DNA from: a virus
Direction: 5' to 3' (one strand)
Length of the DNA stretch: 64,000 bases
Virus record (IMG/VR): IMGVR_UViG_3300033233_000017
Location: 1 to 64,000 of that record
Part shown: positions 17,101 through 34,107 of the stretch, piece by piece
Layout of the letters: every line of letters starts with the position of its first letter
Position numbering within the stretch: position 1 is the stretch's first letter
Program-made: the position numbers and the translations under genes
The notes under the pieces: generated by a model
The model's database searches: none
The model's input: only the letters and a program-made list of their open reading frames with translations
What the model was told of the DNA's origin: nothing

Positions 17101-17586
17101 AGCAGGCAGGAGGACGGAGGACACATGATTGACGAAACGGGGATATTCCGAATCCACGACGAGACCGGATGGTACGCTGTCGATGCGACAGGCGAACTAC
17201 TCACCAAACCGGTGGAGACGAACGAGCAGTTAACCGAGATACTTCAATTAGTTACGGTCTCACGCGTGATCCGGAAGGAGGACAGGAGCGCTCGCAACAC
17301 GCGCGGAAGCCTTGTTCGGCGGATCTACCGGGCGCTCAACTGGCATGAGAGTGCGGCCCGCTGGTACGGGCAAGCGCTTGCTCTTGGGTGGGAATCGTAC
17401 TATAACCGAATGCGACCCGCGATCTGGGCCGCGATTGAGGAACGGAGCGATGGATAAGCGCCTGTGTGACGCACTCCTCGACAATACCGCGGACGGCTAC
17501 CTGCTTACGACCGTGACCTGCGGTCCGAGGGAAAAACCGAGACTGATATTGTCAAAGATTCTGTATGCACTGCAAATGGGGCATAA

Positions 17587-17823
17587 CTACCGGGAGCGAG
17601 ACCGACGCATCAGTAAGGCTATCTGCGCTTCTAGCGTGCGGACCCGCTCCCGTAGGTCCGAGACGGAACACTCCAGGGCGCTCTGCCTGCCTGGACGCCC
17701 CATATCGGCGCGGACGCGGCGCACATACGAGTAGCTACAGCCGGCGTGACGGGAGACCTCGCGGGCCGTTAGGTCCGTTGTGAGCAGTAGATTACGGGCG
17801 CGTTGAGCTTTAGGGGCTCGCAT
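17587..17823 (-). CDS. Small HTH protein divergent from the AAA operon
   Basis: LTAREVSRHAGCSYSYVRRVR plus a coiled-coil tail. Confidence 0.5.
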   Translation of the reverse strand: MRAPKAQRARNLLLTTDLTAREVSRHAGCSYSYVRRVRADMGRPGRQSALECSVSDLRERVRTLEAQIALLMRRSRSR

Positions 17824-17968
17824 ACATTCCCAGTTTAAGCCATTGTATGCCTAACTTGATGAAGCCGATGAAAAAAAGGCCCGAAACTCGCAGAAAAGTC
17901 TTGCTACGTGTTGAGCATCGTGATACTCTACCTATCTGCTTGGTGCAGTTACTAAACAGGAGCGCAAT

Positions 17969-19474
17969 ATGACATTGGGCGAAAAGGTCAAAAGGGCGAG
18001 TAAGGTCAGTACCCCGCTCGTTTTTGTTACGACTCCGGACCCCGCTGCTGCCATCGCGTCAATAGCGGACGGGCTCCGGAACGGGGAAGACATGCCACTG
18101 TTGCGGTGGGACATCGCGCAGGGGCTCCAGCCGGGTAACGATGCTGGAAAAGCATCCTGGACGGCCCTTGGCTCCCCCGATCCGATGGCGAGCGGAAACC
18201 CCACGGAAGCGCTCATGCTGCTCGCAAAAGCGCCTGAGCGCACTGTGGTGTTCATGCTCAATGTGCACCTATTCCTGAACGATCCGCCCGTCAAACAGGC
18301 CCTCTGGAACCTGCGAGACCCCTACAAACAGAACCAGCGAATGATCGTGGGGCTCGGGACAAGCGTGCAATTGCCTGCGGAACTCGCCCAGGATGTTGTC
18401 GTTTTCGATGAGCCACTGCCCGATGCAACCGCCATCCAGGGCATTGTGGGCACGGTCCTGGAAGCTGTACCAGGGCAGGACGGAGCGCCCGATCCGGTAA
18501 TCATCTCCAAAGCTGCCGACGCCCTGACAGGTCTGTCGGCATTCAGGGCAGAGCAGACCACGGCGATGTCGCTACGACGCGATGACTCGCAGAAAGTCGT
18601 GCTCGACATGGACATCTTGCGGGAGCGGCATCGTCAGACCATTGAACAGACGCCGGGGCTCAAGGTGGATCGGGGCGATGAAACCTTTCGAAGTGTCGGA
18701 GGGTGCGCCAATATCATCAATTTTCTTGAACGCATCGCGACAGGTAGGCGACCACCGAAACTGGTCGTGCGGTTGGATGAGATCGACAAGATGATGGGCG
18801 GGGCAAGGGGCGACACGTCAGGCACTAGTCAAGACGCTCTTGGGGTTCTGCTGTCGTTCATGGAAGATCACGAGGGCGACGGGCTTACGGGCCTGCTGGC
18901 CTATGGCGTACCGGGAGCGGGCAAGAGCCTGCTGTCCAAGGCTCTGGGCAATCGCCTGGGAACGCTGACGCTCTCTTTCGACATGGGAGCCATGCGCTGC
19001 TCGCTGGTAGGCTCCAGCGAGCAGCGCATCCGTCAGTCGCTAAAAGTCATCGAAGCCATCAGCGGGGGGAATTGCTTATTCATGGGCACGTGCAACCGTG
19101 CCGACGTGCTCCCTCCTGAACTCCAGAGCCGGTTCGGGCTTGGTCAGTATATGTTCGACGCGCCGACCGCCGAGGAACGCGCCGTCATCTGGCAGATCTA
19201 CCTCAAGAAGTTCGACTTGTCGGATCAGGACCGGCCCGTGGACATCGGCTGGACTGGGCGCGAGATCAAACGCTGCGCATCAAACGCGTGGCTGCTGAAC
19301 TGCCCGCTGATCGAAGCGGCTCAGTACGTCGTGCCGGTGAGCCGAGCGCGGGCTTCGGACATCGACGCGCTGCGCAAGTGGGCGGACGGAAAGCTTCTCT
19401 CTGCCGACTACGCGGGGACATACCAATACGAACGCTCCACCGCTACGAAACAGGTGCGAGCGCTGGAGGTCTAG
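17969..19474 (+). CDS. Ycf46-like AAA+ ATPase with permuted motif order
   Basis: N-terminal Ycf46-like region (LPAELAQDVVVFDEPLPD); VVRLDEIDK, GVPGAGKS, VGSSEQRIR, TCN, LPPEL..RF. Confidence 0.85.
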   Translation: MTLGEKVKRASKVSTPLVFVTTPDPAAAIASIADGLRNGEDMPLLRWDIAQGLQPGNDAGKASWTALGSPDPMASGNPTEALMLLAKAPERTVVFMLNVHLFLNDPPVKQALWNLRDPYKQNQRMIVGLGTSVQLPAELAQDVVVFDEPLPDATAIQGIVGTVLEAVPGQDGAPDPVIISKAADALTGLSAFRAEQTTAMSLRRDDSQKVVLDMDILRERHRQTIEQTPGLKVDRGDETFRSVGGCANIINFLERIATGRRPPKLVVRLDEIDKMMGGARGDTSGTSQDALGVLLSFMEDHEGDGLTGLLAYGVPGAGKSLLSKALGNRLGTLTLSFDMGAMRCSLVGSSEQRIRQSLKVIEAISGGNCLFMGTCNRADVLPPELQSRFGLGQYMFDAPTAEERAVIWQIYLKKFDLSDQDRPVDIGWTGREIKRCASNAWLLNCPLIEAAQYVVPVSRARASDIDALRKWADGKLLSADYAGTYQYERSTATKQVRALEV

Positions 19475-19476
19475 CC

Positions 19477-19833
19477 ATGCCTTGCTGGACAGTCACGGCC
19501 AACGAATTGAAGATGATTAACCCCGACGAGGGCCTGCTCCGTGCGACACTCGAAGAACTGGGATACACCGTTTACGAGAATTCCCGGTACGGCCACTTTG
19601 CCGCCGATCACTTTGGTGGAACGCGGAGCGAGTTACAGGGCTCTAGCGTCCAGATCATCGGCGGAAAGATCACGGTGAGCAGCAAGTACAAGACGCACCA
19701 GAAACTCCTGGACGCGAACAAAGCCGTGGCGCAGGGCTACAGCCGCCAAATTGTGCAGGCTTCAGCCAAGCGAACCGGATTCAGCGTCTATTGGAAGTCT
19801 GAGACGGAATTTGAACTGGCGAAGAGGTACTGA
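19477..19833 (+). CDS. Ycf35/DUF1257-like protein
   Basis: LLRATLEELGY...QGYSRQIVQASAKRTGF; position after the Ycf46-like ATPase. Confidence 0.55.
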   Translation: MPCWTVTANELKMINPDEGLLRATLEELGYTVYENSRYGHFAADHFGGTRSELQGSSVQIIGGKITVSSKYKTHQKLLDANKAVAQGYSRQIVQASAKRTGFSVYWKSETEFELAKRY

Positions 19834-19834
19834 C

Positions 19835-20038
19835 ATGAGCGGAATCGACAAGATCAAGGGTAGCATCCTGGAAGACGGGACGATCAAAACCTCGACCGAT
19901 CAGGTAAGTGCGGCGAATCACTCGACCGCCGAAGCGTTCCTGCGGGAACTCACCCGGCTCACGGGCGGCGCGGTGACGCGCATCCGCAAACCGCAGGTAC
20001 ATACCCACCTGCACACACACGAGCACGAAGGACACTAA
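19835..20038 (+). CDS. DUF2997-like small protein
   Basis: IKGSILEDGTIKTST..., His-rich tail; synteny. Confidence 0.45.
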   Translation: MSGIDKIKGSILEDGTIKTSTDQVSAANHSTAEAFLRELTRLTGGAVTRIRKPQVHTHLHTHEHEGH

Positions 20039-20336
20039 CGGAGTCTCAAACATGCCGGTCACCTCAGTAGCGTGCAAGCAGTCCATTGTAGACTGGCTTC
20101 GCGTCCCACCGCTAACACAGGAACAGATTGACGATGCCAGAGACGTGGCGAACTGGGAACTCACATCCACAGTCGCGGAAGGCGGGAATATTGTGCGTGA
20201 GTTCGATTGTCGCAAGAGTGATGATACACTTCGGGGCTACGTCTATTCCGACATCTCAGACTGTCGGATAGTTGAAGTCTGTATACAGGAAGACTAACTA
20301 ACCGCGCGTATGCGCATACATTCAAGGAGAGCAATT

Positions 20337-21317
20337 ATGTCACAGATCGCAGAGCAGGTACTGACGGAAACCGGCAAGCGCGTTGCCGCCGGTGGAAATA
20401 TCTTCGAGCGCAGCATCGTCCTGAGCGTGGAAATCGGTGCGCTCGGAGTGGCGCGGCGCGTGGGCGGAGCGAACGTGAAAACCAAACGCGCTGTCGACAG
20501 CGACGGCATCAGCGCGCCTGTGGTCATCGACTCGGACACCAATATGGTCCGAGTCAATAAGTCGCTCCTGGAGTCGTCGGAGTTGACCACCATCCGAAGC
20601 TTGCACGGCGAGATCCGGACGTATCTCTACGGTCAAACGGTCAAAGGCCCGCTTCGGGCCGGTATGTACATCACCCCGCTGATCTCGGTCGGACCGGTAG
20701 ATCGCAAGCTGGTTGAGTATCAGGCGCAACTCTGCACACTGGTAGATGCGTTCATCGACGCTTACCCCTCGCTGATCGAAGAGGCGCGCGGGAAACTGGG
20801 ACCGCTGTTTGATGCGACTGAATACCCGGATGAAGAGGCCGTACGGCGCGCGTTCTATCTCACCTGGGAGTGGATCAGTTTCGGAGTTCCGGCTTCGCTC
20901 CAGCAGGTTCAGGACGAGATCTATAACCGCGAACTGGAGAAAGCACAGCGCAAGATGAGCGAAGCCGCCGACATGGTGCAGACGGCGCTACGCGCCGAAC
21001 TGCTCGAACTCGTTAACCACGCGCGAGAGCGGCTGAGCGGAACGACATCGAACGGTAAGCCCAAGGTATTCCGGGACACACTGATCGGTAATATCCGGGG
21101 ATTCTTCGAGACGTTCGACGCCCGCAACCTGACGGGCGACGAGGCGCTGCAAAACATCGTGGATCGCGCCAAGGGCTTACTCGACGGCGTGGACGCGGGG
21201 GCGCTGCGCGACTCCGATCAAGCACGTGCCCAGGTCGCTGCGGGCTTCGCGGAGATTCAGGCAACGCTCGACGGCATGATCGTGGACAAGCCCGTGAGGT
21301 TGATCGACCTCGACTAA
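20337..21317 (+). CDS. DUF3150-like phage protein
   Basis: FIDAYPSLIEEARGKLGPLFDATEYP; AGGAG RBS. Confidence 0.55.
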   Translation: MSQIAEQVLTETGKRVAAGGNIFERSIVLSVEIGALGVARRVGGANVKTKRAVDSDGISAPVVIDSDTNMVRVNKSLLESSELTTIRSLHGEIRTYLYGQTVKGPLRAGMYITPLISVGPVDRKLVEYQAQLCTLVDAFIDAYPSLIEEARGKLGPLFDATEYPDEEAVRRAFYLTWEWISFGVPASLQQVQDEIYNRELEKAQRKMSEAADMVQTALRAELLELVNHARERLSGTTSNGKPKVFRDTLIGNIRGFFETFDARNLTGDEALQNIVDRAKGLLDGVDAGALRDSDQARAQVAAGFAEIQATLDGMIVDKPVRLIDLD

Positions 21318-21882
21318 GGGAAATAGACATGCCAGAACCACAGGCTCAAAAGGACGCTCCACATGCTCAATAAGAAAAACTTTGAAATTGCTGCCCTGCT
21401 CGACAGTCATCCTTATTGGGGCGCGAATCAAGAAAGCCGTGCGGCGGCAGGAGATCGGAAGCGATGGCTTTCCGGACGCGCGCAACTGACCGACACCACT
21501 TCTAGGGGGGGAAGACCCGGTACTCCTGTAAGTCACACTAGTGCTTGTGCTGGAGCGCCGATTGTGGCTTATTTGCCTGAGAGGAATATCTCGATGCCTG
21601 AACCCAAACTCATCCGCTGCCGAACCTGCCGCGAGCAATTCCCCCATGACCCACTTAAACCGGGCTACGCGAATCAGTGCTGGCCCTGCACTCAGAATGC
21701 ACTGGACTCCGGGAAGCTAATCGAACCGGAGCCCTATATCGACGTCAGTTGCGCAGACATTGAGGAAGGGCACGCAGTGATACTGGCGCGCGCCAAGCGC
21801 AACATGCCTGTTCCCTTACTCGACCCTGTTCCCTCCGAGTAAGCCGGAGGGATGGCGCTGTAAGCTTGACCATATTATTGTC

Positions 21883-21911
21883 TTGACTAGAGTATCACGT
21901 AAGCGTATACT
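21883..21911 (+). promoter_or_regulatory. Near-consensus sigma70-type promoter of the recombination operon
   Basis: TTGACT-17-TATACT, then AAGGAG RBS. Confidence 0.75.
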
Positions 21912-21929: not shown

Positions 21930-23456
21930 ATGTCACAGCAATATGATAACAACCGCAACTACAACCAGGGGGATCGTCCTGCGAGAGTGATTCCGGAACC
22001 TCCGGAATTTACTGAAGCGCAGTGGAACGAAGTGCTGGCGCTGGTAACCGGGCTGGACCGCAAGAAATTCACCATCCCGGAACTGCGGATGATCCTGCGC
22101 AAACAGCAGATATCGCAAACTGTCCAGATCGTCTTCGGGGACTACGAGCAATTCATCTACACATGCGCGGCGCGGGGACTGGACCCCATGCTCAACGAAT
22201 TGCATATGGAGTATCGGCGCGACAATCAAACCAACTCCTTCAAGTGCTCGCTCGTGACGCACATTGACGGGATGCGCAAACTGGCCGACCTGTCCGGACA
22301 GTATGACGGCTCGAATACCGAATTCGATCACACCGACCGGGACCCCGGAACTTTGGTCTCTGCGACCTGTACTGTGTGGCGCAAGGATGCCACCCACGCA
22401 TTCAAGGCTACTGTGTACCGCTCTGAGTACCTGGGCAACGCGCTGACACACAAGACCATGCCTCATGTGATGCTTGGCAAGGACGCAGAAGCGGCGGCGC
22501 TGCGCAAAGCGTTTCCGGCTGCGGAGGCGGGCATCGTGATCCAGGAAGAACTTGACTCCCCAGCAGCGGACTCCATTGCGAGCGCTGTGGACAAGGAGAA
22601 AGCCACCGATCAGGCTCCCGAGTTCGCGATTGGAAAGAAGGCGGACGCGCCTGTCCCGGCGCAGGCTCCGGTTCCCACCGCGAGCGCCCCGCCTTCGGCT
22701 CCCGTTCAGCCCCAGACTCCGGCCCCCGCACCGGCCCCCGCACCGGCCCCCGCACCGAAAGCTACGGCACCCGCTCCGGTCCTGGAACAAGCACCTATCC
22801 CAGTATCCGGAAAGGACATCGCTAATCGGAAGTGTGAAGCCGTGCTCGCGAAACTCAACACGAAGATGAAGATGGTACGCGAGTTCGCGGTGGGATTCCT
22901 CGGGGAACCCCTGGACGACGGCCTCAAGCGCTTGCCAAAGTCGTCTCTGGTATGGATCGAATTGCTGGACGCGCTGCTCGCGGCGGACGATCCGCTGCAA
23001 GTGGCCGCCTACGGGCAATGTCCCTATGAGTTCGGCAAAACGCTGTCCGCACAACGGCAGTCCGCGCAACTCTCCACGAACGGAACATCCGCGGAGAGTC
23101 TACAGCGGCACTTCGGATGGTGCGAGAAGACGGCCCTGCTCGCGGCGACATACTGCCAGCGTCACGAGTTGGCGATTGGCGATCTTGAGATGCAGATCGC
23201 TAATCTGAACCTCAAGGGAGCGCCAGAGCCACGCTTGCAGTGCTGGCTGAGTATCGGCATCCACACCCCGATTGCGGCGCGCGTGGTGGAAGCTTATCAC
23301 CGTACCGGAACGCCGCTCTCCCAGTACGTCGCGGAGATCGAAGGACACCTGGGTAAACGCCTCACCGATACCGGAGTGGACCCGAAAGCGGTCGAAGCGG
23401 CAGTCAACCAAACCCTTGGGTCACAGGGGCAAACCGGCAGTCTGTTCGGGAGCTAA
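21930..23456 (+). CDS. bet: Bet/RecT-family ssDNA-annealing protein with a Pro/Ala linker and extra C-terminal domain
   Basis: CAARGLDPM...IDGMRKLA..SGQYDG...MPHVMLGKDAEAAALRKAFP. Confidence 0.8.
   Translation: MSQQYDNNRNYNQGDRPARVIPEPPEFTEAQWNEVLALVTGLDRKKFTIPELRMILRKQQISQTVQIVFGDYEQFIYTCAARGLDPMLNELHMEYRRDNQTNSFKCSLVTHIDGMRKLADLSGQYDGSNTEFDHTDRDPGTLVSATCTVWRKDATHAFKATVYRSEYLGNALTHKTMPHVMLGKDAEAAALRKAFPAAEAGIVIQEELDSPAADSIASAVDKEKATDQAPEFAIGKKADAPVPAQAPVPTASAPPSAPVQPQTPAPAPAPAPAPAPKATAPAPVLEQAPIPVSGKDIANRKCEAVLAKLNTKMKMVREFAVGFLGEPLDDGLKRLPKSSLVWIELLDALLAADDPLQVAAYGQCPYEFGKTLSAQRQSAQLSTNGTSAESLQRHFGWCEKTALLAATYCQRHELAIGDLEMQIANLNLKGAPEPRLQCWLSIGIHTPIAARVVEAYHRTGTPLSQYVAEIEGHLGKRLTDTGVDPKAVEAAVNQTLGSQGQTGSLFGS
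22719..22754 (+). repeat. 3 x 12-bp tandem repeat (PAPA linker)
   Basis: CCGGCCCCCGCA x3. Confidence 0.8.
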
Positions 23457-24088
23457 GACGATGTGCTCACACGATTACGGATGGCCCCGGAAGGGGAGCG
23501 ACAAGGTGGATCGGCAGACCTGCGGGCGCTGTGGTGGTGTCCGCGTGTCCCGGATTCAGTTTGATCCAATGCCGGCCCCGGAAGCTTTGCGCGCTGCGCG
23601 AAAAATGGAGCCCGAGCGTATGCGCGCGTACATGAAGGACGACGAACCGAAAGTGATGGCGGCGGGGGCATCCTGCTAAACAGGTGGACGGGAGGAGGTG
23701 GGTGATGGAGTTCACCGTAGGGCAGGAAGTGGCAATCATTAACTACCACTGGGGTCGCCGGGTTGAAGGGTTTTCCACTGTTGCGGTTGTGGGGAAGCGA
23801 CGGATCGTGCTCGCCAATAAGTCAGAATGGAGCATAGAAGGACGCCCATGGGGATACAGATATGAATCTCGGAGCATTGTTCCCGCAACGGAAGAACTTC
23901 ACCGCGAGGCTCTTGACACAGAGAGACGCAACAATGCGCTCCGGGGAATTGATCGCGTTAAGTTCCGCAACCTCACCACGGACCAACTGGAGCGTATCTT
24001 GGCGGTAATCAATGAGCCCAAGACCAAGGAGCCCCCTGAGCAGGAGAATAACTGTGATTGACATGGGCGACGCAGGGAGGACACCTAA

Positions 24089-24694
24089 ATGGCACAGATT
24101 CACGGCCTGACCTTCAATACCGAGCAACACCGCTACGCCGCGCAAGGGCGCGATGTCCCTGGCGTGACCATGATCCTGCACGACCTGGGGTTCTACCCTC
24201 CGTATCCCATGGACCCCTACTATCGGGCACGCGGCGCGGCGGTCCACTCCTGTACGGAACTAATCGACCAGGGAATGCTGGCTATCGCGGACAACCGGGA
24301 GGGACAGACGCGCTATCCGGGGACCGACGAGCGGTTGTGGGGTTACCTGGATGGTTGGCGCGAGTTTCGCGCAGCGACCATGTGGGTGATCCGGGCTGTG
24401 GAGGAGCGCATATCGCACGATGGGCTCTGGTACGCGGGCACGCTCGACCGACGCTTCATCTCGTCCGCGTCGAACATCATCGCGGACATCAAAACCGGCT
24501 CGGCAGAGGAGTTCGTCCGCTACCAGCTTGCTGGATACGCGCTCGGTTGCGGAGACCTCAAAGCAAGGCGCGTAGTAATCGAGTTGCCTGGAGACGGCAG
24601 GTATCATCTTCGAGACGATTTTTCGTGTCCCCAGGACATAGACGACTGGGCCACGATTGCAAAATTCTGGCACTTGCAGAAAAGGAGATCATAG
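24089..24694 (+). CDS. PD-(D/E)XK exonuclease, recombination partner
   Basis: PGVTMIL...RGAAVH...E...YAGTLD...DIKTG...YQLAGY. Confidence 0.8.
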   Translation: MAQIHGLTFNTEQHRYAAQGRDVPGVTMILHDLGFYPPYPMDPYYRARGAAVHSCTELIDQGMLAIADNREGQTRYPGTDERLWGYLDGWREFRAATMWVIRAVEERISHDGLWYAGTLDRRFISSASNIIADIKTGSAEEFVRYQLAGYALGCGDLKARRVVIELPGDGRYHLRDDFSCPQDIDDWATIAKFWHLQKRRS

Positions 24695-24696
24695 AC

Positions 24697-25656
24697 ATGG
24701 CTCGCAAGAAAGTCACCAGCATCGAGACCGCCAAAGGCCCGCTGCTGGACATTGTAGACACCCCGACCGAACCAGGGATGGACCTGGAAGTCATTGTCGG
24801 AACGCCGGGGGATCTGGTCCCTCGCGCGCAGGAATTCATCGAGTTCTTGACCAATGGGCTCTCCGGCTACGGAACCACGAAAGTGGCCGAATTCAACGCG
24901 CAGTTCGAGGGGCTCGAACGCCTACCGGTGAACGCGGAGACTTGCCCGCAGGTCAGCAAGCGGTTGGCGGAACTCAAAGACTGGATGAGCGATATCGACG
25001 CATCTTTCAAAAAGCCAACTGATATCGCCAATCGCATCCACAAGTGCATGACCGGCGCGCGTGCCGCCATCCTGGACACTGCGAAAATAGTGATGGTTGC
25101 CACGAGCAACAACCTCCTGAAGTACAACCTTGCCGTGCGCGAAGAAAACGAACGCCGCGCACGCGCGGCGGAAGCCGAGCGCCAGCGATTGGCCCAGGAA
25201 GCGGCTGACAAGGCTCGCGCGGATGCTGAAGCCGAGCGACAGCGTTTGTTGGACGAGCAGCAAGCGCGTCTCGCAGAACAACGGGCAGCAGCAGAGGAAG
25301 CGGCACCGTGGGACGACGAGCCCGAACCCGTACCGATACCCGAGATCGCACTGCCGGACCCGGAGGAAGCGGCGCGGCAGGCGGCGGAAACGGCACTCCT
25401 CAACGCGCCCGTGGCGTTGAGGAGTGCGAAACCTGAGATGGTTGGCGTGGCCACTCGGAAGACCCCGCTCCATGCGGTCGTGTGCGACAAAATCGCACTC
25501 ATCAAAGAGGCGGCAGAGAACCCGGAAGCATTCGCACAGTATCTAGAACCTGTAATGCCGTTGCTGAACGCACTGGCGAAGCAGGCCGATAAGGAGATGG
25601 TGTACATCGTCCCCGGCGTACGCGCCGAGCGCGGTGAAACATTGGGACGGTCTTAG
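24697..25656 (+). CDS. Coiled-coil phage protein
   Basis: E/A/R-rich helix; ends VPGVRAE. Confidence 0.65.
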   Translation: MARKKVTSIETAKGPLLDIVDTPTEPGMDLEVIVGTPGDLVPRAQEFIEFLTNGLSGYGTTKVAEFNAQFEGLERLPVNAETCPQVSKRLAELKDWMSDIDASFKKPTDIANRIHKCMTGARAAILDTAKIVMVATSNNLLKYNLAVREENERRARAAEAERQRLAQEAADKARADAEAERQRLLDEQQARLAEQRAAAEEAAPWDDEPEPVPIPEIALPDPEEAARQAAETALLNAPVALRSAKPEMVGVATRKTPLHAVVCDKIALIKEAAENPEAFAQYLEPVMPLLNALAKQADKEMVYIVPGVRAERGETLGRS

Positions 25657-26267
25657 CGCGTGTACGCGCGCATATGCGGCAAAGGAGCAAGCACATGAAG
25701 CTGACTATCACCGTCGAAGACAAGACGTACCAGATACAATTCGACCGGATCGAACACTCCTCCGAGTTGAGCGGCTACGACACTCACATCTACGGCACAA
25801 GTGACGGAGTGAACCTCTTCAAGATTCGCGGCGCAGAGCGGGCCACTATCTACAAATCGAATGACTCGTACCTCGCGTCGGGGATCTCGTTCTGCTCGCG
25901 CAAAGAGCGGTGGAACGGGGAGAAAGGACGCAAGGAAGCGGTCAAGAAGGCGCTGCTCGCAGCCAAGGGCTCTTTCACCAAGGCGCAGCGGCATGAGTTC
26001 TGGGACGCATACCGCAGGCTGGACGACGAGGAGTATAGACTCCAGTGCGCCGCCGCAGAGAAGGAGCGACCGATGTGCGCTCCCGATTCCACGCCCGCAG
26101 ACAGAGCGATGACCGGATATCTCGATGACATTCGCGACAGTGCGTCCGCCTGAGTTGCCGGCCATGCCTGCCATACCCCCACCCCCCGCTGCGCGCGAGG
26201 ATGACCCGGACTGCCCGTTCTAACGGGCAGTCAACCTGAAACCGCAGTCAACTAGGAGGATACAGAT

Positions 26268-26492
26268 ATGATGGACATTCCGATGGAGAAAATCGAGGGA
26301 TCAAGCAACATCGAAGCGGCGGGCTATCTGCACTCCGCCATGACGCTGCGCATCCAGTTCACGGGCGGGCGGAAGTACGACTACGCTCCGGTCCCGGAAG
26401 AGACCTGGAAGGCGCTGATGAGCGCTCCGAGCAAAGGGAAGTTCTTCGCATCTAACATCAAGAACATCTACGGTTGCGAGAAGGTTGGCTAG
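26268..26492 (+). CDS. KTSC-domain protein
   Basis: SSNIEAAGY...LRIQF..GRKYDY..VP.ETW..LMSAPSKGKFF. Confidence 0.9.
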   Translation: MMDIPMEKIEGSSNIEAAGYLHSAMTLRIQFTGGRKYDYAPVPEETWKALMSAPSKGKFFASNIKNIYGCEKVG

Positions 26493-27073
26493 GAGCGCTA
26501 AATCATGCGTTTTCCGGACAAGATTACCGCTGGCGAAAAGTACGGTCCGGCGATGCGGATCACGGACCCGGAAAAGGCGCGGGAGTATTTCGAAGCCTGC
26601 GTCGAACACTGTATGCGGAGGACGCACCGAGAGCGCACGGAAGCGGAGCACATCGAACGCATGAACCTAGGTTACTTTGCCGGATACTTCAACCGGGAAA
26701 CCTATGAGCGCGCGCAGCGATTGTACATGTCTTCCCATCCGGCGTTCGGTTCGGGTTACCCCGCTCCCAGAGTTGCGATGGGGGCGGGGCTCCGGGAAGG
26801 AGCCAAGAAGGTAGACTAATCATGAGCACACTCGACACCCTCACTAATACTCTTCTGAAAGTCTCGAAGGAGTACAACAGTTTGAAACTCGCAGTGGAGG
26901 ACCTACGTGCGCAGATGGAGGCCGACGCCATGCGCAAGATCAAACTGTACCTGGAAGCCGAGTACGGCGCGGAACTGCAACGTCTCGCGGAAGCGCGGAG
27001 CGATGCCCATGACGACCTAATGGCAGGGCGGATCATATTGGCGGGGTGAGTACGCTAAGGGGGAACTAGTAAA

Positions 27074-28870
27074 GTGGGATTGCGCGACTATCAGCAAGAC
27101 TGTCTCGACAAGATTCGGGAGGCGAAGCGGAAGGGCATCAATAAGCAGCTTTGCGTTTCTCCGACAGCTTCAGGAAAAACGGTAATTTTTTCCCATCTTC
27201 CTGATGCGCTTGGACTGCAACCGGGCGAACAGATGATGGTGTGCGCCCACAGGAAGGAGTTATGCGACCAGACCGCTGAGAAACTGCGCAGATACAACCC
27301 AGACCTGAAGGTCTCAGTGGAACGGGCCGAGGAACGCGCCGACACCAATGCCGATCTTATCGTGGCATCAGTTCCCACTATCGGAAAGGCCAAGCGGCGC
27401 GAGGCCGACAACGGGAACTTGATCGCATCTCCCGATGACTCCGACCTGAAATGGGAGTTCTGCTCACGCTTGCGCAAGTTCGACCCGGAACGGGTGCGTC
27501 ATTGCGTAATTGATGAATTCCATCACTGTCCGGCTGGTTCCACTTACCACAATGTACTGCGCTACTTCCGTCTCTTTAAGCCGGAGCCGGAGTATGACGA
27601 CCGCAGCAAGACTCTGATCGGGTTCACTGCAACCCCAAACCGAAGTGACAGTATCGGGATGGACGCCATCGTGGACGAGATCGTCTTCCAGCGCGAGATC
27701 CGCGAGATGGTCAAAGCGGGCTGGCTGGAGCGAATCCATGCGTACATGGTTCACACTGAGACGAACATATCCGAGGTCGCTACGCGCCAAGGCGATTTCG
27801 TCCCATCACAGTTAGAGAAGGTCATCAATAGTCCGGAACGCAACCGGCTAATCGTAAGCGAATATCAGAAACGTGGCGAAGGGATGCAGGCGTTTGCCTT
27901 CACTGTCGATGTGCAGCACAGCATCGACTTGGCGCAAGCCTTCAACGATGCGGGTATCCCGGCAGCAGCAATCTCTGGGGACACCCCGCCCGACCTGCGA
28001 GCCGCATACTTCCAGGCATTCAGAGACTACGAGCTACAGATCCTCGTATCCTGCCAAGTGCTACTGGAGGGCACGGACGTTCCGCAGGCGTCCGTGGGCC
28101 TGATGTGCCGCCCGACCAAATCCGGGCTCATGTATACCCAGTCCATCGGGCGCTTGTTGCGTCCGTATCCGGCTCCCGAGGAACTGGCCCGTTGGGTTGG
28201 GTGGATCAAGCCCTACGCGATTATCCTAGACTTCGTAGATGTCTGCGGACGGCATCGGCTAAACACGATTCCTACCCTGTTCGGGCTGCGCCCGGACTTC
28301 GATGCGCGCGGGAAAGACGTCGTGGAGACAGTCGAAGAAGTCGAGCAGTTGACCACCAAGGCGCGCGGCGTGGACCCCGCCCTGTTTACTGACCTCACAA
28401 GCCTGCGGGCTATGGTGGAATCGGTCGATCTTCTGGCAACTCCTACCGTTCCGGAGGCCCTGCGTGGCGTCTCGCCATTCACTTGGATGACCGGACCGAC
28501 CGGAGGGTACGTGCTAATCTTGCCAGAGAAGGCCAGTTACTCTGTGAAGCAGAACCTACTGGGCCAATGGGAGGCATCAAGGAGCGCCAATGGAGTTCGC
28601 TATCCCATGGGTAAATTCAGGTCACTGGACGCTGCGGTGCGCGACATCGACCAGCGGGTTCCTCCCGACGTCCAGGTGATCCTGAAGTCAGATGCCGGAT
28701 GGAGGCGCGAGGCTCCTAGCGACAAGCAGGTAGGACTGCTGTGGAAAGTAGATCGGGAGTTGCGTCAGCGCATCCCCACGTATGAGCAATTCTCCGCATT
28801 TGTGAAGGCGACTTACACTCGTGGAGATGTCAGCAACCGAATAAATCACAACTGGAGACGGGTCAGATGA
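27074..28870 (+). CDS. SF2 DEAD/DEAH helicase
   Basis: LRDYQ, PTASGKT, DEFHH, TATP, EGTDVP, QSIGRLLR. Confidence 0.9.
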   Translation: MGLRDYQQDCLDKIREAKRKGINKQLCVSPTASGKTVIFSHLPDALGLQPGEQMMVCAHRKELCDQTAEKLRRYNPDLKVSVERAEERADTNADLIVASVPTIGKAKRREADNGNLIASPDDSDLKWEFCSRLRKFDPERVRHCVIDEFHHCPAGSTYHNVLRYFRLFKPEPEYDDRSKTLIGFTATPNRSDSIGMDAIVDEIVFQREIREMVKAGWLERIHAYMVHTETNISEVATRQGDFVPSQLEKVINSPERNRLIVSEYQKRGEGMQAFAFTVDVQHSIDLAQAFNDAGIPAAAISGDTPPDLRAAYFQAFRDYELQILVSCQVLLEGTDVPQASVGLMCRPTKSGLMYTQSIGRLLRPYPAPEELARWVGWIKPYAIILDFVDVCGRHRLNTIPTLFGLRPDFDARGKDVVETVEEVEQLTTKARGVDPALFTDLTSLRAMVESVDLLATPTVPEALRGVSPFTWMTGPTGGYVLILPEKASYSVKQNLLGQWEASRSANGVRYPMGKFRSLDAAVRDIDQRVPPDVQVILKSDAGWRREAPSDKQVGLLWKVDRELRQRIPTYEQFSAFVKATYTRGDVSNRINHNWRRVR

Positions 28871-28951
28871 GATGATCGACTTACTAGCCTTCGGTGCTTT
28901 TGCCGTCGTAACCATCTGCGCTTGGATCGCTTTTTTACCAAAGAGGAGCCG

Positions 28952-29335
28952 ATGATACATTGCTTGACCGTCCGGCAACCGGGGGCGTGGCTGTTGATCC
29001 ACGGCACCAAGGACATCGAGAACCGGGACTGGGCCACTAGTTACCGGGGAGAACTTTGGATTCACGCGTCCAAGGGGATGACTAGGAGCGAATACGAAGA
29101 TGCCCGAGCATTTGTGGCACGGTTTGATCCGGCGCTGGCGGAAGCAATTCCGCAACCAGTGGATTTAGTGCGAGGAGCCATCATCAGGAAGATGATCCTG
29201 CGCGTTATTGTTACCGAAAGCGGCTCACCGTGGTTTCAAGGGATCGCTTGGCCTATGGGACTGCGATTTAGTATTACCAGGAGAGTAGGATGGCTGAGAC
29301 AATCAAGACTATCACGGAATTTCATCCGAATTTGA
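28952..29335 (+). CDS. ASCH-domain protein, C-terminus possibly degenerate
   Basis: LTVRQPGAWLLIHGTKDIENRDW...YRGELWIHAS...SPWF. Confidence 0.8.
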   Translation: MIHCLTVRQPGAWLLIHGTKDIENRDWATSYRGELWIHASKGMTRSEYEDARAFVARFDPALAEAIPQPVDLVRGAIIRKMILRVIVTESGSPWFQGIAWPMGLRFSITRRVGWLRQSRLSRNFIRI

Positions 29336-29754
29336 ACATCCAGTTCGAATACGTACCCGCAGACGATCTGCGCAAACTCTTCCCGCAGGAACTCCCTCCT
29401 AATTGGAGGTGCGAGGGATGGGGATACGATGGAGTCGCATACGCCTACGAGCCGCAGTGGGGACGTCGGTTGAAAGTGCTGATCTCCTCCGCCCGTCAAT
29501 TGGACAGTCGCATGTGGCTGCACCTATCCCTCTCGAAGTGGTCTCCGAGTGGATCGACACAGGTGCTTCCCTCCTGGGAAGATGTCATGCAGGTCAAGGA
29601 GATCTTCCTCGGGCCGCTGCGGGAAGCCTACATCGTGCTTCCGAAGCGCGCCAACCATGTCAACCTCGGGGAAGTGCATCATATCTGGTGCCCACTCTAC
29701 GACGACGGGCCTTCCCCACTTCCAGATTTCACGCGGGGGATGGGAGTTATATGA
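29290..29754 (+). CDS. Phage hypothetical protein
   Basis: WLHLSLS...PSWEDVMQVKEIFLG...HVN...HHIW. Confidence 0.65.
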   Translation: MAETIKTITEFHPNLNIQFEYVPADDLRKLFPQELPPNWRCEGWGYDGVAYAYEPQWGRRLKVLISSARQLDSRMWLHLSLSKWSPSGSTQVLPSWEDVMQVKEIFLGPLREAYIVLPKRANHVNLGEVHHIWCPLYDDGPSPLPDFTRGMGVI

Positions 29755-30127
29755 GTAAACTCAGTTCAAGAGCCTACGAATCTACAACGCCCACGCCTTC
29801 GCTGGAAAGGGGAACGTATGCATAGAATACTCCCCGGCAGACAATGGGCGCGGAGTACATGGTGCGCACTTTACCATCTTTCGGATAGGGCATCAAACAG
29901 ATCCAACTGCGCCTTGGTACGCCCATGGCAACAAGGAATTTGGCGTATATGGCAGGACGGCCAAAGCAGGAACGCTTGAACAGGCCAAAGCCTGGGCCGG
30001 CGAGAAGTATGGAATTGAATCCTGGGCGCGGACGCCGTATGGAACCTGGATGGATTCCAAGTTTGTGAAGCGCCGGATCGCAGAACTAAAGGTCAAGTCC
30101 TCTATTCTGGAGACATTTAGCAAATAA
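29751..30127 (+). pseudogene. Frameshifted phage gene
   Basis: Coupled ATG at 29751 is out of frame with a 122-codon open frame (29759-30127) that has no 5' start codon. Confidence 0.5.
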
Positions 30128-30186
30128 GTCACGTACGCGCGCATATGTCTTGCGCTCCCGAGTAACATCGAAGTAGGAGGATATGT

Positions 30187-30555
30187 ATGTCAGAGAACCA
30201 GGATCTAAAAAGCGGAATTCTGTCCGACGAAGAGGTGCAGCGCATTCATCAAAAGCATCACTACAGCCCGAAGTCATCCGACCCTGATCCTCCCGTGTTC
30301 GCCTGCCTGCGGGTGCGCCGCTCCGTCATGGACAAGTACCGGGCCTTCGCCAAAACTGCCAATATCACCACTTCGGAGTTGCTGCGCCGAGCCATTGGGG
30401 TGATCGTACGAATGGACAATCCCCGGATGACGAACATAAACCGGGAAGTCTACACCAAGGGCTACATGGACGCGCTGGAGGACCTGAAGATAAAAGCGGA
30501 CGGAATGGTCCCAGAGCACCTGCGTAAACGCCACCGCGAAGACCCTACCGGTTGA
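30187..30555 (+). CDS. Possible ribbon-helix-helix regulator
   Basis: CLRVRRSVMDKYRAFAKTANITTSELLRRAI; AGGAGG RBS. Confidence 0.5.
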   Translation: MSENQDLKSGILSDEEVQRIHQKHHYSPKSSDPDPPVFACLRVRRSVMDKYRAFAKTANITTSELLRRAIGVIVRMDNPRMTNINREVYTKGYMDALEDLKIKADGMVPEHLRKRHREDPTG

Positions 30556-30891
30556 GACCTGGGCGGACCCGGAATCCATGGGTCCGCCTCCACTCCCCCT
30601 GCTTTAGCCTGCTCTGTTTCCTCCGTCCTAAAACATCCGGCACGCACACACATCCCCCGCAGTTGTGGTAATAGAAGCCCACTATTATTAAATTTCAGTC
30701 ATTCTTGCGCAATAGGGTTCCAATATCCGAAATAAGGGCGTATAAGTGTATACAAAGGTATCTAGAACCAGGGCTTGCGGAGTCGATTTCCATATTCCGC
30801 CACTCCGCAAGCTGCATTCCTGACGGTGAAAATTGGCTCCCTTGTAGAGAATAGGGTGGAATCACAGCGAAGGCAAAGATAGAGGCGAAAT

Positions 30892-31209
30892 ATGGGAACA
30901 CAGACACTAATGTCGCGGCGTGGGGCAAAGCAGCGACGATTTCATCACACCCCTCACGTTTCACGAGAGGAAGCGGCCCGTATCCTTTCCATGAAGGCCC
31001 CGCAGTTGATTGACTTCACGGGGATATTGAACACAAAGGTCTGTGCGTTCTGTGGCTGCGAGTCGGTCGGCCTACACAGGCACCACCATCCCATACCTAA
31101 AATACAGGGCGGAAGGAAAACTGTACGGATCTGCGCCAACTGCCATGCCGAGTTCCACTGGAGCACTACCGCTGTTGACTGGGACAAGGTGGTCGAGGGA
31201 TTGGTTTGA
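30892..31209 (+). CDS. HNH endonuclease-like protein
   Basis: CAFCG...HHHPIPK..GG......CANCHAEFH. Confidence 0.7.
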   Translation: MGTQTLMSRRGAKQRRFHHTPHVSREEAARILSMKAPQLIDFTGILNTKVCAFCGCESVGLHRHHHPIPKIQGGRKTVRICANCHAEFHWSTTAVDWDKVVEGLV

Positions 31210-31565
31210 TGACTTCAACCACGTTCAATCCATTCGAACATGACTGGGTAGTAATCCCGTGGCAGGTGGCTCGCTACCGTGGGATCTCCGCACAGGCTAA
31301 GGTTATCTACGGTCGGCTCAGCCGATACGTGGACGAGAAAGGCTTCGCCTACCCGAACGTAACTGAACTTGGAGAAGAGGTTGGTCTCGGGGAACGGCAG
31401 ACAAGGACTCACCTTCAGGAGTTGGAGAAGGAAGGGTTTATATCTGTCCAGCGCCGCTTCAGGGCATCCAACCTTTACGTCTTCCTGCACCACCCATGTT
31501 TCGATGGGGAAATTGGTTTTCCCCGCGTGACCCCTCCTTTAGCGAAAGCAGGAGGCGCGGAATGA
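31206..31565 (+). CDS. Stand-alone winged-HTH (HTH_36-like) protein
   Basis: AKVIYGRLSRY...AYPNVTELGEEVGLGERQTRTHLQELEKEGFI. Confidence 0.8.
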   Translation: MMTSTTFNPFEHDWVVIPWQVARYRGISAQAKVIYGRLSRYVDEKGFAYPNVTELGEEVGLGERQTRTHLQELEKEGFISVQRRFRASNLYVFLHHPCFDGEIGFPRVTPPLAKAGGAE

Positions 31566-33217
31566 GCGGAGAGATCTTTAACCCATTCACGAAGGGGTGG
31601 TGCCTACACCTGCCGCCAGAGGTGGCGAGTTATCCGGGGCTCTCGTGGCCGTGCAAAGGCGTCTATATGCGGCTCGGTCGGTATGCGGGCCGTAAAGGAC
31701 TGGCATATCCGAAGATTGCAACCCTATCCAGAGAGGTCGGACTTTGCATCCGACAGACGCGAGCCCACTTAAAGGATCTCGAAGTCGATGGCTTTATCCG
31801 TAGCCGACGACGTTTTGGGACTTCTAATGTCTATGAGTTTCTAGAGCATCCATGTTTCTCCAAGCAAATCCCCACTTCTGCGGATACCCGCAAAGATGAA
31901 GAGATTTGCAGTTGTGCGGAAACCTGCATGACTGAGAAAACCGAGGAAATCTCCAGTCATGCAGGAACCTTCCACTATGGAAGAAACCTGCCGCATGATG
32001 ATGCAGATTCCTGCCGCGTTAGAAAGGATCTTCTTAAAGAAAACCTAAAACATACTGTCTCTGAGACTGAAATTCCTCAAACCCAACCCACCACTACCGA
32101 GCAGGCTGCTGAGAGTGAGCCTTGCAATGCGTCCCCAGGGATTAACGTTCCTTCATGTGATTCGTATGACGACTTCTTAATGGGGCTGAAGTTGGCTTAC
32201 CGGAATTGCCGTGGGGCGAAGTTGGACAATCTCAAGGCGAAGGCGAACGCGCACGCCGAACAGCAGTTGGCGGAAGCCTACGAAGCCTACGAGGAGCACA
32301 GCGGGGCGCTACTGGCGGCTGTGGAATTGTACCTCTCCGAGAGCAGCGAGTTCCTGCGGTCGAAGGGATGGCCGATCAAGGTCTTTCTGTCCCAGAAGCA
32401 GAAGTACCTCGACCGGGTGGAGGATTCCAACCCGCGACCTGCGATTAAAACCCCTCCGGCTCCGCGCCCGGTCACCCCAGTGCAACGAACGCCCCCTCCC
32501 CTGGCGCTCCCCACCCCTGAAACGGTCCTGGAGGCTAAAACGGCCCAACGGACCGGATTACCTGAACTGGCGGAAGCCTGGAATAAGCGGGTTCCGCACG
32601 CGACCAAGGTGTCCAGTTGGCTGCGGGAGTGGGACGCGCTGACGCGCGAGCCCCTGATCGCGGAGAATTTGGACGAGTTGTTGTCGAAATGTGACGCTCT
32701 GGCGGTCCAGCGGGAGAACCCCGAGAGTCGGTTCACCACGGCGATCTCCTTCCCCTGGTTCTCAAAACAATGGGAGAAACTCCTAAATGGGGTGTATGAC
32801 TGGGCACTGCCGGATGATTTCGTGGTAGGACCGCCGCCTGCCGACCCCGTTCCGGAGGTCGATCACTCCGAGCCATACAAGGGCCATCCCGACTACGACC
32901 TGATCGTCTCGAATAAACTCTGGGAGCGCCCAGAGGTGCTCGATGACGCCGGGAAAATGCGCATGTACCGGATCGCGCAGCGCCGCGATGCGCTGCTGCG
33001 GTTCTTCACGCTAACCCAGAACTACCAGGACTACATCGAGCAGGAGAAGCAATTCCGGGCCAGTTGGCCTAAGTGCATGAAACCTGGGACTTTCGACGTA
33101 GTGAATGAGCACTACGATGAGCAGGCGGAAGCGCTACTGGACACCTGGGAAGCGTGGCTCAATGATCTCAAGGCGAAGTACCGGGCAGAACAGACACAAA
33201 AAGGGGGCATCGCATGA
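31562..33217 (+). CDS. Replication initiator with an N-terminal winged HTH
   Basis: HTH paralogous to the upstream gene; internal iteron-like repeats; followed by Zn-finger and DnaB genes. Confidence 0.7.
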   Translation: MSGEIFNPFTKGWCLHLPPEVASYPGLSWPCKGVYMRLGRYAGRKGLAYPKIATLSREVGLCIRQTRAHLKDLEVDGFIRSRRRFGTSNVYEFLEHPCFSKQIPTSADTRKDEEICSCAETCMTEKTEEISSHAGTFHYGRNLPHDDADSCRVRKDLLKENLKHTVSETEIPQTQPTTTEQAAESEPCNASPGINVPSCDSYDDFLMGLKLAYRNCRGAKLDNLKAKANAHAEQQLAEAYEAYEEHSGALLAAVELYLSESSEFLRSKGWPIKVFLSQKQKYLDRVEDSNPRPAIKTPPAPRPVTPVQRTPPPLALPTPETVLEAKTAQRTGLPELAEAWNKRVPHATKVSSWLREWDALTREPLIAENLDELLSKCDALAVQRENPESRFTTAISFPWFSKQWEKLLNGVYDWALPDDFVVGPPPADPVPEVDHSEPYKGHPDYDLIVSNKLWERPEVLDDAGKMRMYRIAQRRDALLRFFTLTQNYQDYIEQEKQFRASWPKCMKPGTFDVVNEHYDEQAEALLDTWEAWLNDLKAKYRAEQTQKGGIA

Positions 33218-34107
33218 CCTCCGCCACCCCCTTCCGCGACATCTCCGACCGGGTGAGCTTTGCGACATTACTCGCTTCGCTCGGCTGCGACCCCTTGCGG
33301 CAGGGACGATCCGCCTGCCCAGTCTGCAACGTCACCCGGAACAAGTCGGCGTTCTCTGTCCACGAGCGCAAGGGCGTATGGCAGTGTTTCGCTTCAAACC
33401 ACGGCGGGACCAAGTTGGATCTCGTGATGGGGCTCCAGAACTGCTCCAAGCGTGAGGCGGCGGAGTACATTGCCGACCTCGCCGGCGTGGACCTGAAGCA
33501 CCAGAGTAAAGAGGAATGGCTCCGGCGCAAGCGGTTACTGGAGCAGAGCCGCCACGAGGCAGAGGCGTTCAGAGGGTGGGTACAGAAGATGCACAACGCG
33601 TACGAGGGCATCTTCTGGGCGCTCACCGACGCCCACGTGAAGGTCTGCCGCTGGCTGTGCAACCATCCGCAACCCGGCGCGGACGTTTACCAATGGGCAC
33701 TCCGCTTCGACCGGGCCTATGAACTCGACTCCCTGATCTCCATCGCGCACGGGCAATTGGAGGCGTTCACCTCCACCTCCCGCGCCAAGTTGTTTGCCTT
33801 GTTCCGTACGCGCGCATACTGGAACAAGCCCTCTTCCGCCTACTGGTTACCCGCCTGGACCGGGCCAATGATTTCCCGGTATGTGACTCGGAAGGCCGAC
33901 CAGCGCAATCAACAAGACTGGGATCTCGCGTTCCTGTCCCTACTGGAAGCGGGGGTGACTCCCCGTGAATTTCTTACTGCTCTTAATCTTTTTGATGTTG
34001 ACGCCGACCGCACATGCCCTCATCCGAAGACATCTCAGAGTACGCCCAAACCGTCACCGACGTCGTTGAGACCTATGGAGATGGATCGTATGCCAGTCAG
34101 AACGTAG
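33214..34107 (+). CDS. Protein with a primase-type Zn-binding (CHC2-like) domain
   Basis: CPVC...SAFSV....GVWQCFAS.HGGTKLDLVM. Confidence 0.7.
   Translation: MTSATPFRDISDRVSFATLLASLGCDPLRQGRSACPVCNVTRNKSAFSVHERKGVWQCFASNHGGTKLDLVMGLQNCSKREAAEYIADLAGVDLKHQSKEEWLRRKRLLEQSRHEAEAFRGWVQKMHNAYEGIFWALTDAHVKVCRWLCNHPQPGADVYQWALRFDRAYELDSLISIAHGQLEAFTSTSRAKLFALFRTRAYWNKPSSAYWLPAWTGPMISRYVTRKADQRNQQDWDLAFLSLLEAGVTPREFLTALNLFDVDADRTCPHPKTSQSTPKPSPTSLRPMEMDRMPVRT

Follow-up and report, generated by a model that had tools for sequence, protein, structure and literature searches.

A phage Ycf46-like AAA ATPase family in which the Walker B block is encoded ahead of the P-loop

Organization of the ATPase gene

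The sequence analyzed here, referred to as the window, is a 64,000-nucleotide stretch covering positions 1 to 64,000 of the virus record IMGVR_UViG_3300033233_000017, a 102,726-base IMG/VR entry that CheckV rates as complete. The gene under study is an open reading frame (ORF) at 17969–19474 on the + strand, which encodes a 501-residue AAA protein and opens a + strand run that continues with ORFs of 118, 67, 81, 335, and 159 residues. The translation, a match to the Pfam AAA profile PF00004, an AlphaFold2 model, and structural alignment with VIA-align together describe a two-tier AAA protein with a degenerate D1-like domain followed by a block-swapped, apparently active D2 domain. The PF00004 match of the whole protein scores 57.7 bits against a curated cut-off of 21.2 (E = 2.2e-15). 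A scan of the 501-residue protein against NCBIfam returned weak, partial AAA matches only, all far under their cut-offs, and the best library match of the whole protein is phrog_8638 (E = 1.5e-39, in four stretches).

The D1-like domain consists of residues 1–215 (17969–18613) and was delimited from the secondary structure of the model and from alignment to p97 D1 in whole-chain matches. Its elements (a, helices; b, strands) follow the normal order b1-a1-b2-a2-b3-a3-b4-a4-b5-lid. The site of the P-loop reads TTPDPAAA, and the domain contains neither a P-loop nor a DE box. A Pfam scan of this domain alone gave no match.

The active domain begins with helix a0 (residues 247–257, 18707–18739, ...GGCANIINFLERIA), which is a helix in the model and is coupled to the P-loop and a1. 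It is followed by a transposed block, C' (residues 264–304, 18758–18880), that contains the Walker B strand b3' (residues 265–269), the acidic pair D270-E271 (18776–18781) within the motif KLVVRLDEIDK (residues 264–274, 18758–18790), a short helix, a GDTSGTS loop, and helix a3' (residues 286–300), which ends in LLSFMED at residue 300. The next block, B' (residues 305–368, 18881–19072), carries b1, Walker A, a1, b2 (LTLSFD), the pore loop L346-V347-G348 (LVGSSEQ), and a2; the P-loop GVPGAGKS at residues 313–320 (18905–18928) fits GxxGxGK[ST], VGSSEQRIR spans residues 347–355, and a2 ends in EAISGG (residues 362–367). The chain then enters the sensor-1 strand b4, the second region of homology (SRH), and b5 (start of block D', residues 369–397, 19073–19159), an assignment that draws on conservation, the model strands, and a b1-b5 coupling. 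Sensor 1 reads CLFMGTCN (residues 369–376; N376 at 19094–19096) and the SRH reads LPPELQSRF (residues 381–389; R388 at 19130–19132). Neither a Walker B strand nor a second DE box is present between a2 and the sensor-1 strand. The domain closes with a helical lid that includes GWTGREI (residues 398–475, 19160–19393; model helices at 401–472), in which R431 (19259–19261) occupies the AAA+ sensor-2 position, and VIA-align alignments extend to about residue 485. A first-pass annotation, made from the sequence alone, had described exactly this order of a0, Walker B strand and helix, P-loop block, and sensor 1, and each motif that it quoted was located.

The linker from a3' to b1 (residues 301–307, 18869–18889, HEGDGLT) is a new connection because of the block swap. 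In this protein it is three residues longer than in nearly all relatives.

Out-of-order alignment and comparison with normal-order relatives

Profile alignments place the two blocks in reversed order. Residues 257–305 alone match PF00004 positions 58–96 (E = 2.9e-4, 21.7 bits, cut-off 21.2), and the piece from residue 306 onward matches the same profile (E = 1.1e-9) with its best stretch, residues 309–362, on positions 1–54; in the scan of the whole protein the corresponding stretch was residues 310–362 on positions 2–54. A phmmer search of PDB sequences aligned residues 308–362 with residues 240–294 of p97 and, in a separate alignment, residues 348–419 with the p97 stretch past Walker B. Against a profile built from 121 normal-order relatives, residues 266–301 fall on positions 356–392 and residues 308–365 on positions 296–353. 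The chain therefore does not follow the collinear order b1 (Walker A)-a1-b2-a2-b3 (Walker B)-a3-b4 (sensor 1), and on this point the profile matches and the element order of the model agree. These alignments bear out the earlier claim that the Walker B strand and its helix were transposed ahead of the P-loop, and they show that the moved block is homologous to the Walker B block of Ycf46-type proteins.

A tblastn search of phage genomes identified AAA proteins of the usual order, namely gp050 of Rhizobium phage vB_RleS_L338C (AHC30467.1) and gp60 of Rhodobacter phage RcTiptonus (QXN72530.1); the relatives of this pair carry the JGI label "SpoVK/Ycf46/Vps4 family AAA+-type ATPase". If helix a0 is denoted A, b1 to a2 B, b3 to a3 C, and b4 onward D, the normal-order relatives read A-B-C-D and the 501-residue protein reads A-C-B-D. 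BLASTP aligned the protein with L338C gp050 over its whole length (E = 5e-19), with two reciprocal gaps that fall exactly at each C block. The same two gaps were found when the permuted and normal-order families were compared with hhalign (probability 100%, E = 3.6e-46, 457 columns). The homology to phage Ycf46-like ATPases is full-length and covers the degenerate N-terminal domain as well (a fragment at profile positions 23–221).

Exchanging the two blocks in silico restored collinearity in both directions. On the native protein, the normal-order profile produced five out-of-order fragments (best 47.6 bits, total 109.8); after the swap it produced one main collinear domain of 133.5 bits and a 5.5-bit C-terminal fragment (total 141.8). 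Conversely, the permuted-family profile matched L338C gp050 in four fragments (191.0 bits), which became a single domain of 228.2 bits once its blocks were swapped. The change amounts to a circular permutation confined to the sub-segment b1...a3. Consistent with the earlier statement that this is not a simple circular permutation of the domain, a0 and b4-b5-lid stay in place and are collinear with normal-order relatives.

The C'/B' junction of the family, MQD..A.G.IF.GPPG, has nearly the length and pattern that would result from joining MQETHAP, which ends a normal C block, to KGMALIGPPG, which begins a B block. The rearrangement may have originated by a tandem duplication of b1...a3 (B-C), after which the outer copies, that is, the first B and the last C, were lost. 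Among 390 collected proteins, no convincing duplication intermediate, with two P-loops or two DE boxes per domain, was found.

Conservation of order and motifs

The Walker-B-first order is common to all 331 relatives in our alignment. A word-indexed search returned 444 relatives, which are ∼45% identical along the whole protein. When 1.84 billion cluster representatives were searched with a profile, 24,678 of them reached E ≤ 1e-3 irrespective of block order and 3,643 reached E ≤ 1e-30, and the best 150 all lay below 1e-170. A DE or EE box precedes the P-loop in 269/269 collected family proteins; 250 have the strict motif and the others have variants at the same aligned position. Within the 331-sequence alignment, E271, G316, K319, and N376 are invariant, R388 is present in 330, T374 in 324, and D270 in 328, with Glu in the other three. 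All motifs are thus intact, as the first-pass annotation had it, and conserved family-wide. Because order and motifs are kept in every relative examined, the arrangement is far beyond chance.

The family is present in viral and bacterial genomes. All 80 IMG/VR viral loci match the query across nearly its full length in the same order, and the 80 bacterial-genome loci, which are the best 80 of at least 402, are all collinear with the permuted-family profile. The host records of the latter include Acidobacteriota, Nitrospirota, Armatimonadota, Planctomycetota, Myxococcota, and others. One permuted gene is on the finished chromosome of Nitrospira moscoviensis NSP M-1, and gp103 of the isolated Tunturiibacter phage Tunturi_3, annotated as "ATPase", is a permuted member at 38% identity. 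Some genomes carry two or three copies, and since permuted-family genes sit on large chromosomal contigs of several phyla, the family is common in prophages or other integrated elements.

Several family members are interrupted by inteins, elements that favor conserved active-site motifs. Inteins in the relatives P0126, P0203, and P0223 are inserted after residue 374 (T374|C375), in sensor 1 and ahead of the conserved Cys375, and those in P0158 and P0206 are inserted at residues 316–319, inside the P-loop. Their homing-endonuclease domains are of the LAGLIDADG or HNH type, except that the short P0223 insert has none.

Support for the assembly was found in two sets of contigs. A Logan contig of 102,483 bases, from a sediment run that is possibly the same sample, shows zero differences over 17900–19900. 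A sediment contig from a second study covers 18749–18917, also with zero differences, and bridges the C'/B' junction; the second-study contigs cover the gene in part, and the A/C' and B'/D' junctions are not formally spanned by them. No RNA data set was listed for this stretch.

Predicted fold and coevolution

AlphaFold2, run with 120 relatives, gave a confident model (ma8d710253dd0) with a mean predicted local distance difference test score (pLDDT) of 94.7 and a predicted template modeling score of 0.89. Along the chain, the model elements are b3' (265–269), a3' (286–300), b1 (307–313), a1, b2 (333–337), a2 (349–365), b4 (369–375), and b5 (392–396). In a model of a normal-order relative, these elements recur at matching lengths but in the usual order. 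The whole chain matches p97/Cdc48 D1-D2 (Foldseek E ∼1e-13; VIA-align to 7lmz_C, Z 18.9 over 400 residues, root-mean-square deviation 4.5 Å). The active tier superposes on the p97 D2 crystal structure 6g2v (Z 16.9, root-mean-square deviation 2.3 Å over 198 residues) and on Vps4 (6bmf_B, Z 17.1). About 55 of the ∼255 active-tier residues are left unaligned, which is approximately the drop expected of a sequential aligner for a transposed 41-residue block and loops.

Mean-field direct coupling analysis (DCA) was carried out on residues 225–470, initially with 269 sequences and then with 331 (effective number 281), and the top 100 pairs were judged. Control contacts were recovered. Helix a0 and the P-loop/a1 region share eight top-100 pairs (p = 4.6e-6), among them C246-G318, L253-L326, and V243-L321, and the pairs A311-F396 (b1-b5), L326-M372 (a1-b4), and N248-Y394 (a0-b5) were also found. 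The moved strand b3' is coupled to b4 through four top-100 pairs out of 100 possible (p = 4e-4; V267-C369, V267-F371, I272-G373, and one more) and to b2 through V267-F337. There are no top-100 pairs for b3'-b1, b3'-b5, b2-b4, or b2-b1. Helix a3' is coupled to a2 by six pairs, to the pore-loop region by four pairs, and to b4 by F297-F371. The strongest coupling of all, L265-S365, connects the start of the moved strand with the end of a2, two points that are neighbors along the chain of a normal AAA domain.

This pattern is the one expected for the normal sheet order b2-b3-b4-b1-b5, with b3' between b2 and b4. Coevolution thus points to a Walker B strand that probably adjoins the sensor-1 strand. 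The first-pass annotation had named a DE strand folding away from the P-loop as evidence that would count against it, and such an arrangement was not seen; coevolution sets the strand beside b4 and b2, and b4 in turn is coupled to a1, which follows the P-loop. Profile alignment, structure prediction, and a search for homologues, as it had proposed, gave concordant results. Segments aligned to the AAA profile out of order as it expected, with PF00004 positions 58–96 preceding 1–54, the structure prediction was confident with an active domain that superposes on p97 D2, and homologues of the same order were found, namely every relative examined.

An arginine at position 387 or 431

The SRH of this protein departs from that of its family. 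It reads Q386-S387-R388 where the family has R-R-R, so that R388 is present as a candidate arginine finger and R386 and R387 are replaced, and its lid reads GWTGREI where the family has GWTGAEI. Across the 331 sequences, 316 have R387 with a residue other than Arg at 431 and 15 have R431 with a residue other than Arg at 387; none has both and none has neither. The protein studied here is of the rare R431 type (387–388 at 19127–19132; 431 at 19259–19261). S387-R431 ranks third among the DCA couplings. When columns 387 and 431 are left out of tree building, the state changes at least 12 times on the resulting tree, and the well-supported independent contrasts agree in 6/6 cases (sign test p = 0.031). 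Position 431 corresponds to sensor 2 of AAA+ lids, an Ala in the classic clade. These sequence patterns suggest that a single catalytic arginine can occupy either of two sites, the SRH or sensor 2.

The gene module and its neighborhood

The ATPase gene is followed on the + strand by three partner genes with family relatives. The 118-residue protein (19477–19833) was placed in the DUF1257 superfamily by an iterative profile; seeded with this protein, the profile recruits 76 downstream ORFs, including Tunturi_3 gp102 (E = 2.4e-11) and L338C_052 (E = 1.2e-4), both of which are DUF1257-positive in Pfam. The 67-residue protein (19835–20038) was placed in the DUF2997 superfamily in the same manner; three phage proteins that are DUF2997-positive in Pfam served as seeds, and the resulting profiles recruit it with E of 1e-15 to 1e-11. 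Through iterative profiles, then, the gene has both the DUF1257 and the DUF2997 neighbors of the Ycf46-like group. It should be noted that these profiles are the only link, since BLASTP gave no significant alignment of the 118- and 67-residue proteins with gp102 and gp101 of Tunturi_3. The 335-residue protein (20310–21317) is DUF3150-like based on its tblastn homologues and on Pfam matches among the homologue set: DUF3150 is matched by 15 members of the scanned set (best E = 2.7e-9), and the set contains 35 homologues of the 335-residue protein.

A tblastn search downstream of the ATPase in the 80 viral loci found a homologue of the 335-residue protein on the same strand in 77, of the 67-residue protein in 34 (at the same position), and of the 118-residue protein in 12. 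The usual layout in these loci is the ATPase followed by proteins of ∼105, ∼67, and ∼310 residues. DUF1257 and/or DUF2997 genes also lie downstream in the normal-order phage relatives, which indicates that the rewiring arose inside an existing module.

The 81-residue (20052–20297) and 159-residue (21363–21842) ORFs match no family, and tblastn detected no counterpart of either in the 80 viral loci; on this basis they are lineage-specific insertions between conserved partners. Just upstream of the operon is a divergent, Arg-rich ORF of 78 residues (17587–17823, − strand), which resembles a small DNA-binding regulator. Further along the strand of the ATPase gene, downstream of it, a recombination/replication block (21930–35417) encodes RecT (PF03837, E = 3.9e-17), a weakly exonuclease-like protein, an SF2 helicase, an HTH_36 initiator-like protein, and DnaB. 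A promoter and terminator scan of 17400–21900 found nothing above shuffled expectation.

Interpretation and alternative explanations

Our current hypothesis, to which we assign a probability of about 0.8, is that this phage gene specifies a Ycf46-like AAA ATPase of the classic clade, with an inactive D1-like tier and one active domain whose chain is rewired, and that it probably works with the partners of its module. The b3-a3 unit, that is, the Walker B strand and its helix, is encoded between a0 and b1, and a2 runs directly into b4. The sheet order b2-b3-b4-b1-b5 would be kept and only three loops reconnected, a0 to b3, a3 to b1, and a2 to b4. Based on known AAA topology, each reconnection would reach the strand one over from the usual partner in the same direction, and the handedness of the crossovers could be kept. 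Since the sheet order would be kept and only loops reconnected, K319, D270/E271, N376, and R388 could form an ordinary AAA active site.

We infer ATPase activity, ring assembly, substrate remodeling, and use of the partners. The protein most likely hydrolyzes ATP as a ring and employs its LVG pore loop in remodeling or unfolding a protein substrate. It would probably act jointly with the DUF1257-, DUF2997-, and DUF3150-like products of the co-transcribed genes, which head the recombination/replication operon of the phage, as an ATP-driven protein-remodeling ring with small partners that acts early in infection. We hold the enzymology of a protein-remodeling ring with moderate confidence and the biology of the module in infection with low confidence.

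Several points weigh against this hypothesis. The position of E271 relative to the P-loop in three dimensions is a predicted one, which draws on DCA and on model confidence, and DCA is blind to the difference between intra-chain and inter-chain contacts. The functional P-loop fold proposed by the first-pass annotation is suggested by conservation. The family-typical R386 and R387 are missing from this protein, and R431 appears to compensate. Lastly, the partner proteins of the window (118, 67, 81, 335, and 159 residues scanned) reach no Pfam model directly, and a search across the virus record for PF06868, PF11211, and PF11348 gave no match.

Because DCA is blind in this respect, the same couplings could arise from three-dimensional domain swapping, in which the b3'-a3' block would enter the sheet of a neighboring subunit, Walker B would act in trans, and the protein would be an obligate intertwined oligomer. 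The flexible TGRRPPK stretch that connects a0 to b3' would permit such an exchange. The monomer model, however, is confident over the block and its flanks (pLDDT 85–97 for residues 261–310), and the a3'-to-b1 linker of ∼3–6 residues is as long as the a3-to-b4 linker in normal-order relatives, a length that fits a neighboring strand in cis because b1 adjoins b4. Both the shortness of this linker and the confidence of the monomer model favor a moved block in cis, and we consider domain swapping improbable. We regard as about equally improbable, or slightly more so, that the protein is a nucleotide-binding pseudo-ATPase, dead for hydrolysis, in which the upstream DEIDK block is a structural remnant and not a Walker B motif. 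The loss of R386 and R387 could be read in this way, and the D1-like tier shows that the lineage tolerates dead AAA domains. Yet the invariance of E271, K319, and N376 and the near-invariance of R388 are seen in sequences that are ∼45% identical overall, the block is coupled to b4, b2, a2, and the pore loop like a working Walker B unit, inteins target the P-loop and sensor 1, and the constant presence of an arginine at either 387 or 431 speaks for selection on catalysis.

The window comes from a metagenome-derived virus record, and its sole full-length read support is possibly from the same sample, so an assembly or sequencing artefact has to be weighed as well. We consider this explanation exceedingly improbable. 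The order is identical in all aligned relatives, which come from hundreds of independent samples and include an isolated phage genome and a finished chromosome, and the second-study contig bridges the C'/B' junction with zero differences. The misassembly that the first-pass annotation had allowed for is excluded by the family-wide order and by this independent sample.

Returning to the hypothesis of a rewired and active AAA domain, we lean, with reservations, toward a broader proposal. A large phage and prophage AAA clade that spans many phyla would carry the first natural non-circular permutation of the AAA+/ASCE core and would still be a working ring motor, in which a catalytic arginine would have been shuttled at least a dozen times between SRH position 387 and sensor-2 position 431. 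AAA active-site topology and arginine geometry would then be far more plastic than the textbook view.

Relation to known systems

The AAA+ core is among the most studied enzyme folds, and the order of its elements is treated as fixed and underlies motif annotation, clade classification, and mechanistic models. A full-text search, in which coverage of subscription journals was incomplete, found no description of a Walker-B-before-Walker-A AAA order, and the swapped order is not described in the Tunturi phage paper, in a jumbo-phage survey, or in a review of AAA+ insertions. The best-matching library family, phrog_8638, is of unknown function and carries no function or topology annotation. Apart from its non-collinear order, the protein would be classed as an AAA ATPase on catalytic and structural grounds.

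A fold that tolerates this block exchange is a natural test bed for questions of folding pathway and allostery, and the natural swap is a template for engineered permutations. It also explains why profile searches fragment the protein, with a best Pfam stretch of just ∼55 residues. The either/or arginine at 387 and 431 bears on how arginine fingers and sensor 2 share work at the gamma-phosphate. In addition, ∼100-kb phages of hosts that include Acidobacteriota and Nitrospirota have the conserved DUF1257/DUF2997/DUF3150 module ahead of their recombination/replication genes, and this position points to an early phage function yet to be characterized.

The best structural matches across both tiers are type II AAA unfoldases with solved structures, namely p97/VCP, Cdc48, Drg1/Afg2, NVL, and Rix7. 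Sequence identity to these proteins is just 15–22%. Unlike them, the phage protein has no N-domain, and its model begins at the D1-like fold, a tier without a P-loop, a DE box, or a Pfam AAA match; its active tier has a rewired chain order, and ∼198–215 of the ∼255 residues in that tier align sequentially.

Altered motif order is known among natural P-loop NTPases from the circularly permuted GTPases of the YlqF/YawG/YjeQ type, which have the order G4-G5-G1-G2-G3 and keep both fold and catalysis. Those are whole-domain permutations. In the ATPase described here, the old termini of the domain are not joined and new ones are not opened inside it; the termini are in place and two internal blocks of the ASCE/AAA core are exchanged.

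L338C gp050 and RcTiptonus gp60 share with the permuted protein a two-tier build with a degenerate N-domain, the motifs DE[IV][DE]K, GD(S/T)SG(V/T)S, and L..MQ[ED], the LVGQSE pore loop, the sensor-1 Asn, and LP.E, as well as DUF1257 and/or DUF2997 genes downstream. They differ in the SRH, which reads FLRRGRLD in this pair and ELRRRF in the permuted family, and in a segment of ∼12 residues ahead of b1 (F..DAKKFGI.AP) that is absent from the permuted protein. Above all, their P-loop block precedes the Walker B block, and in the permuted protein the two are exchanged.

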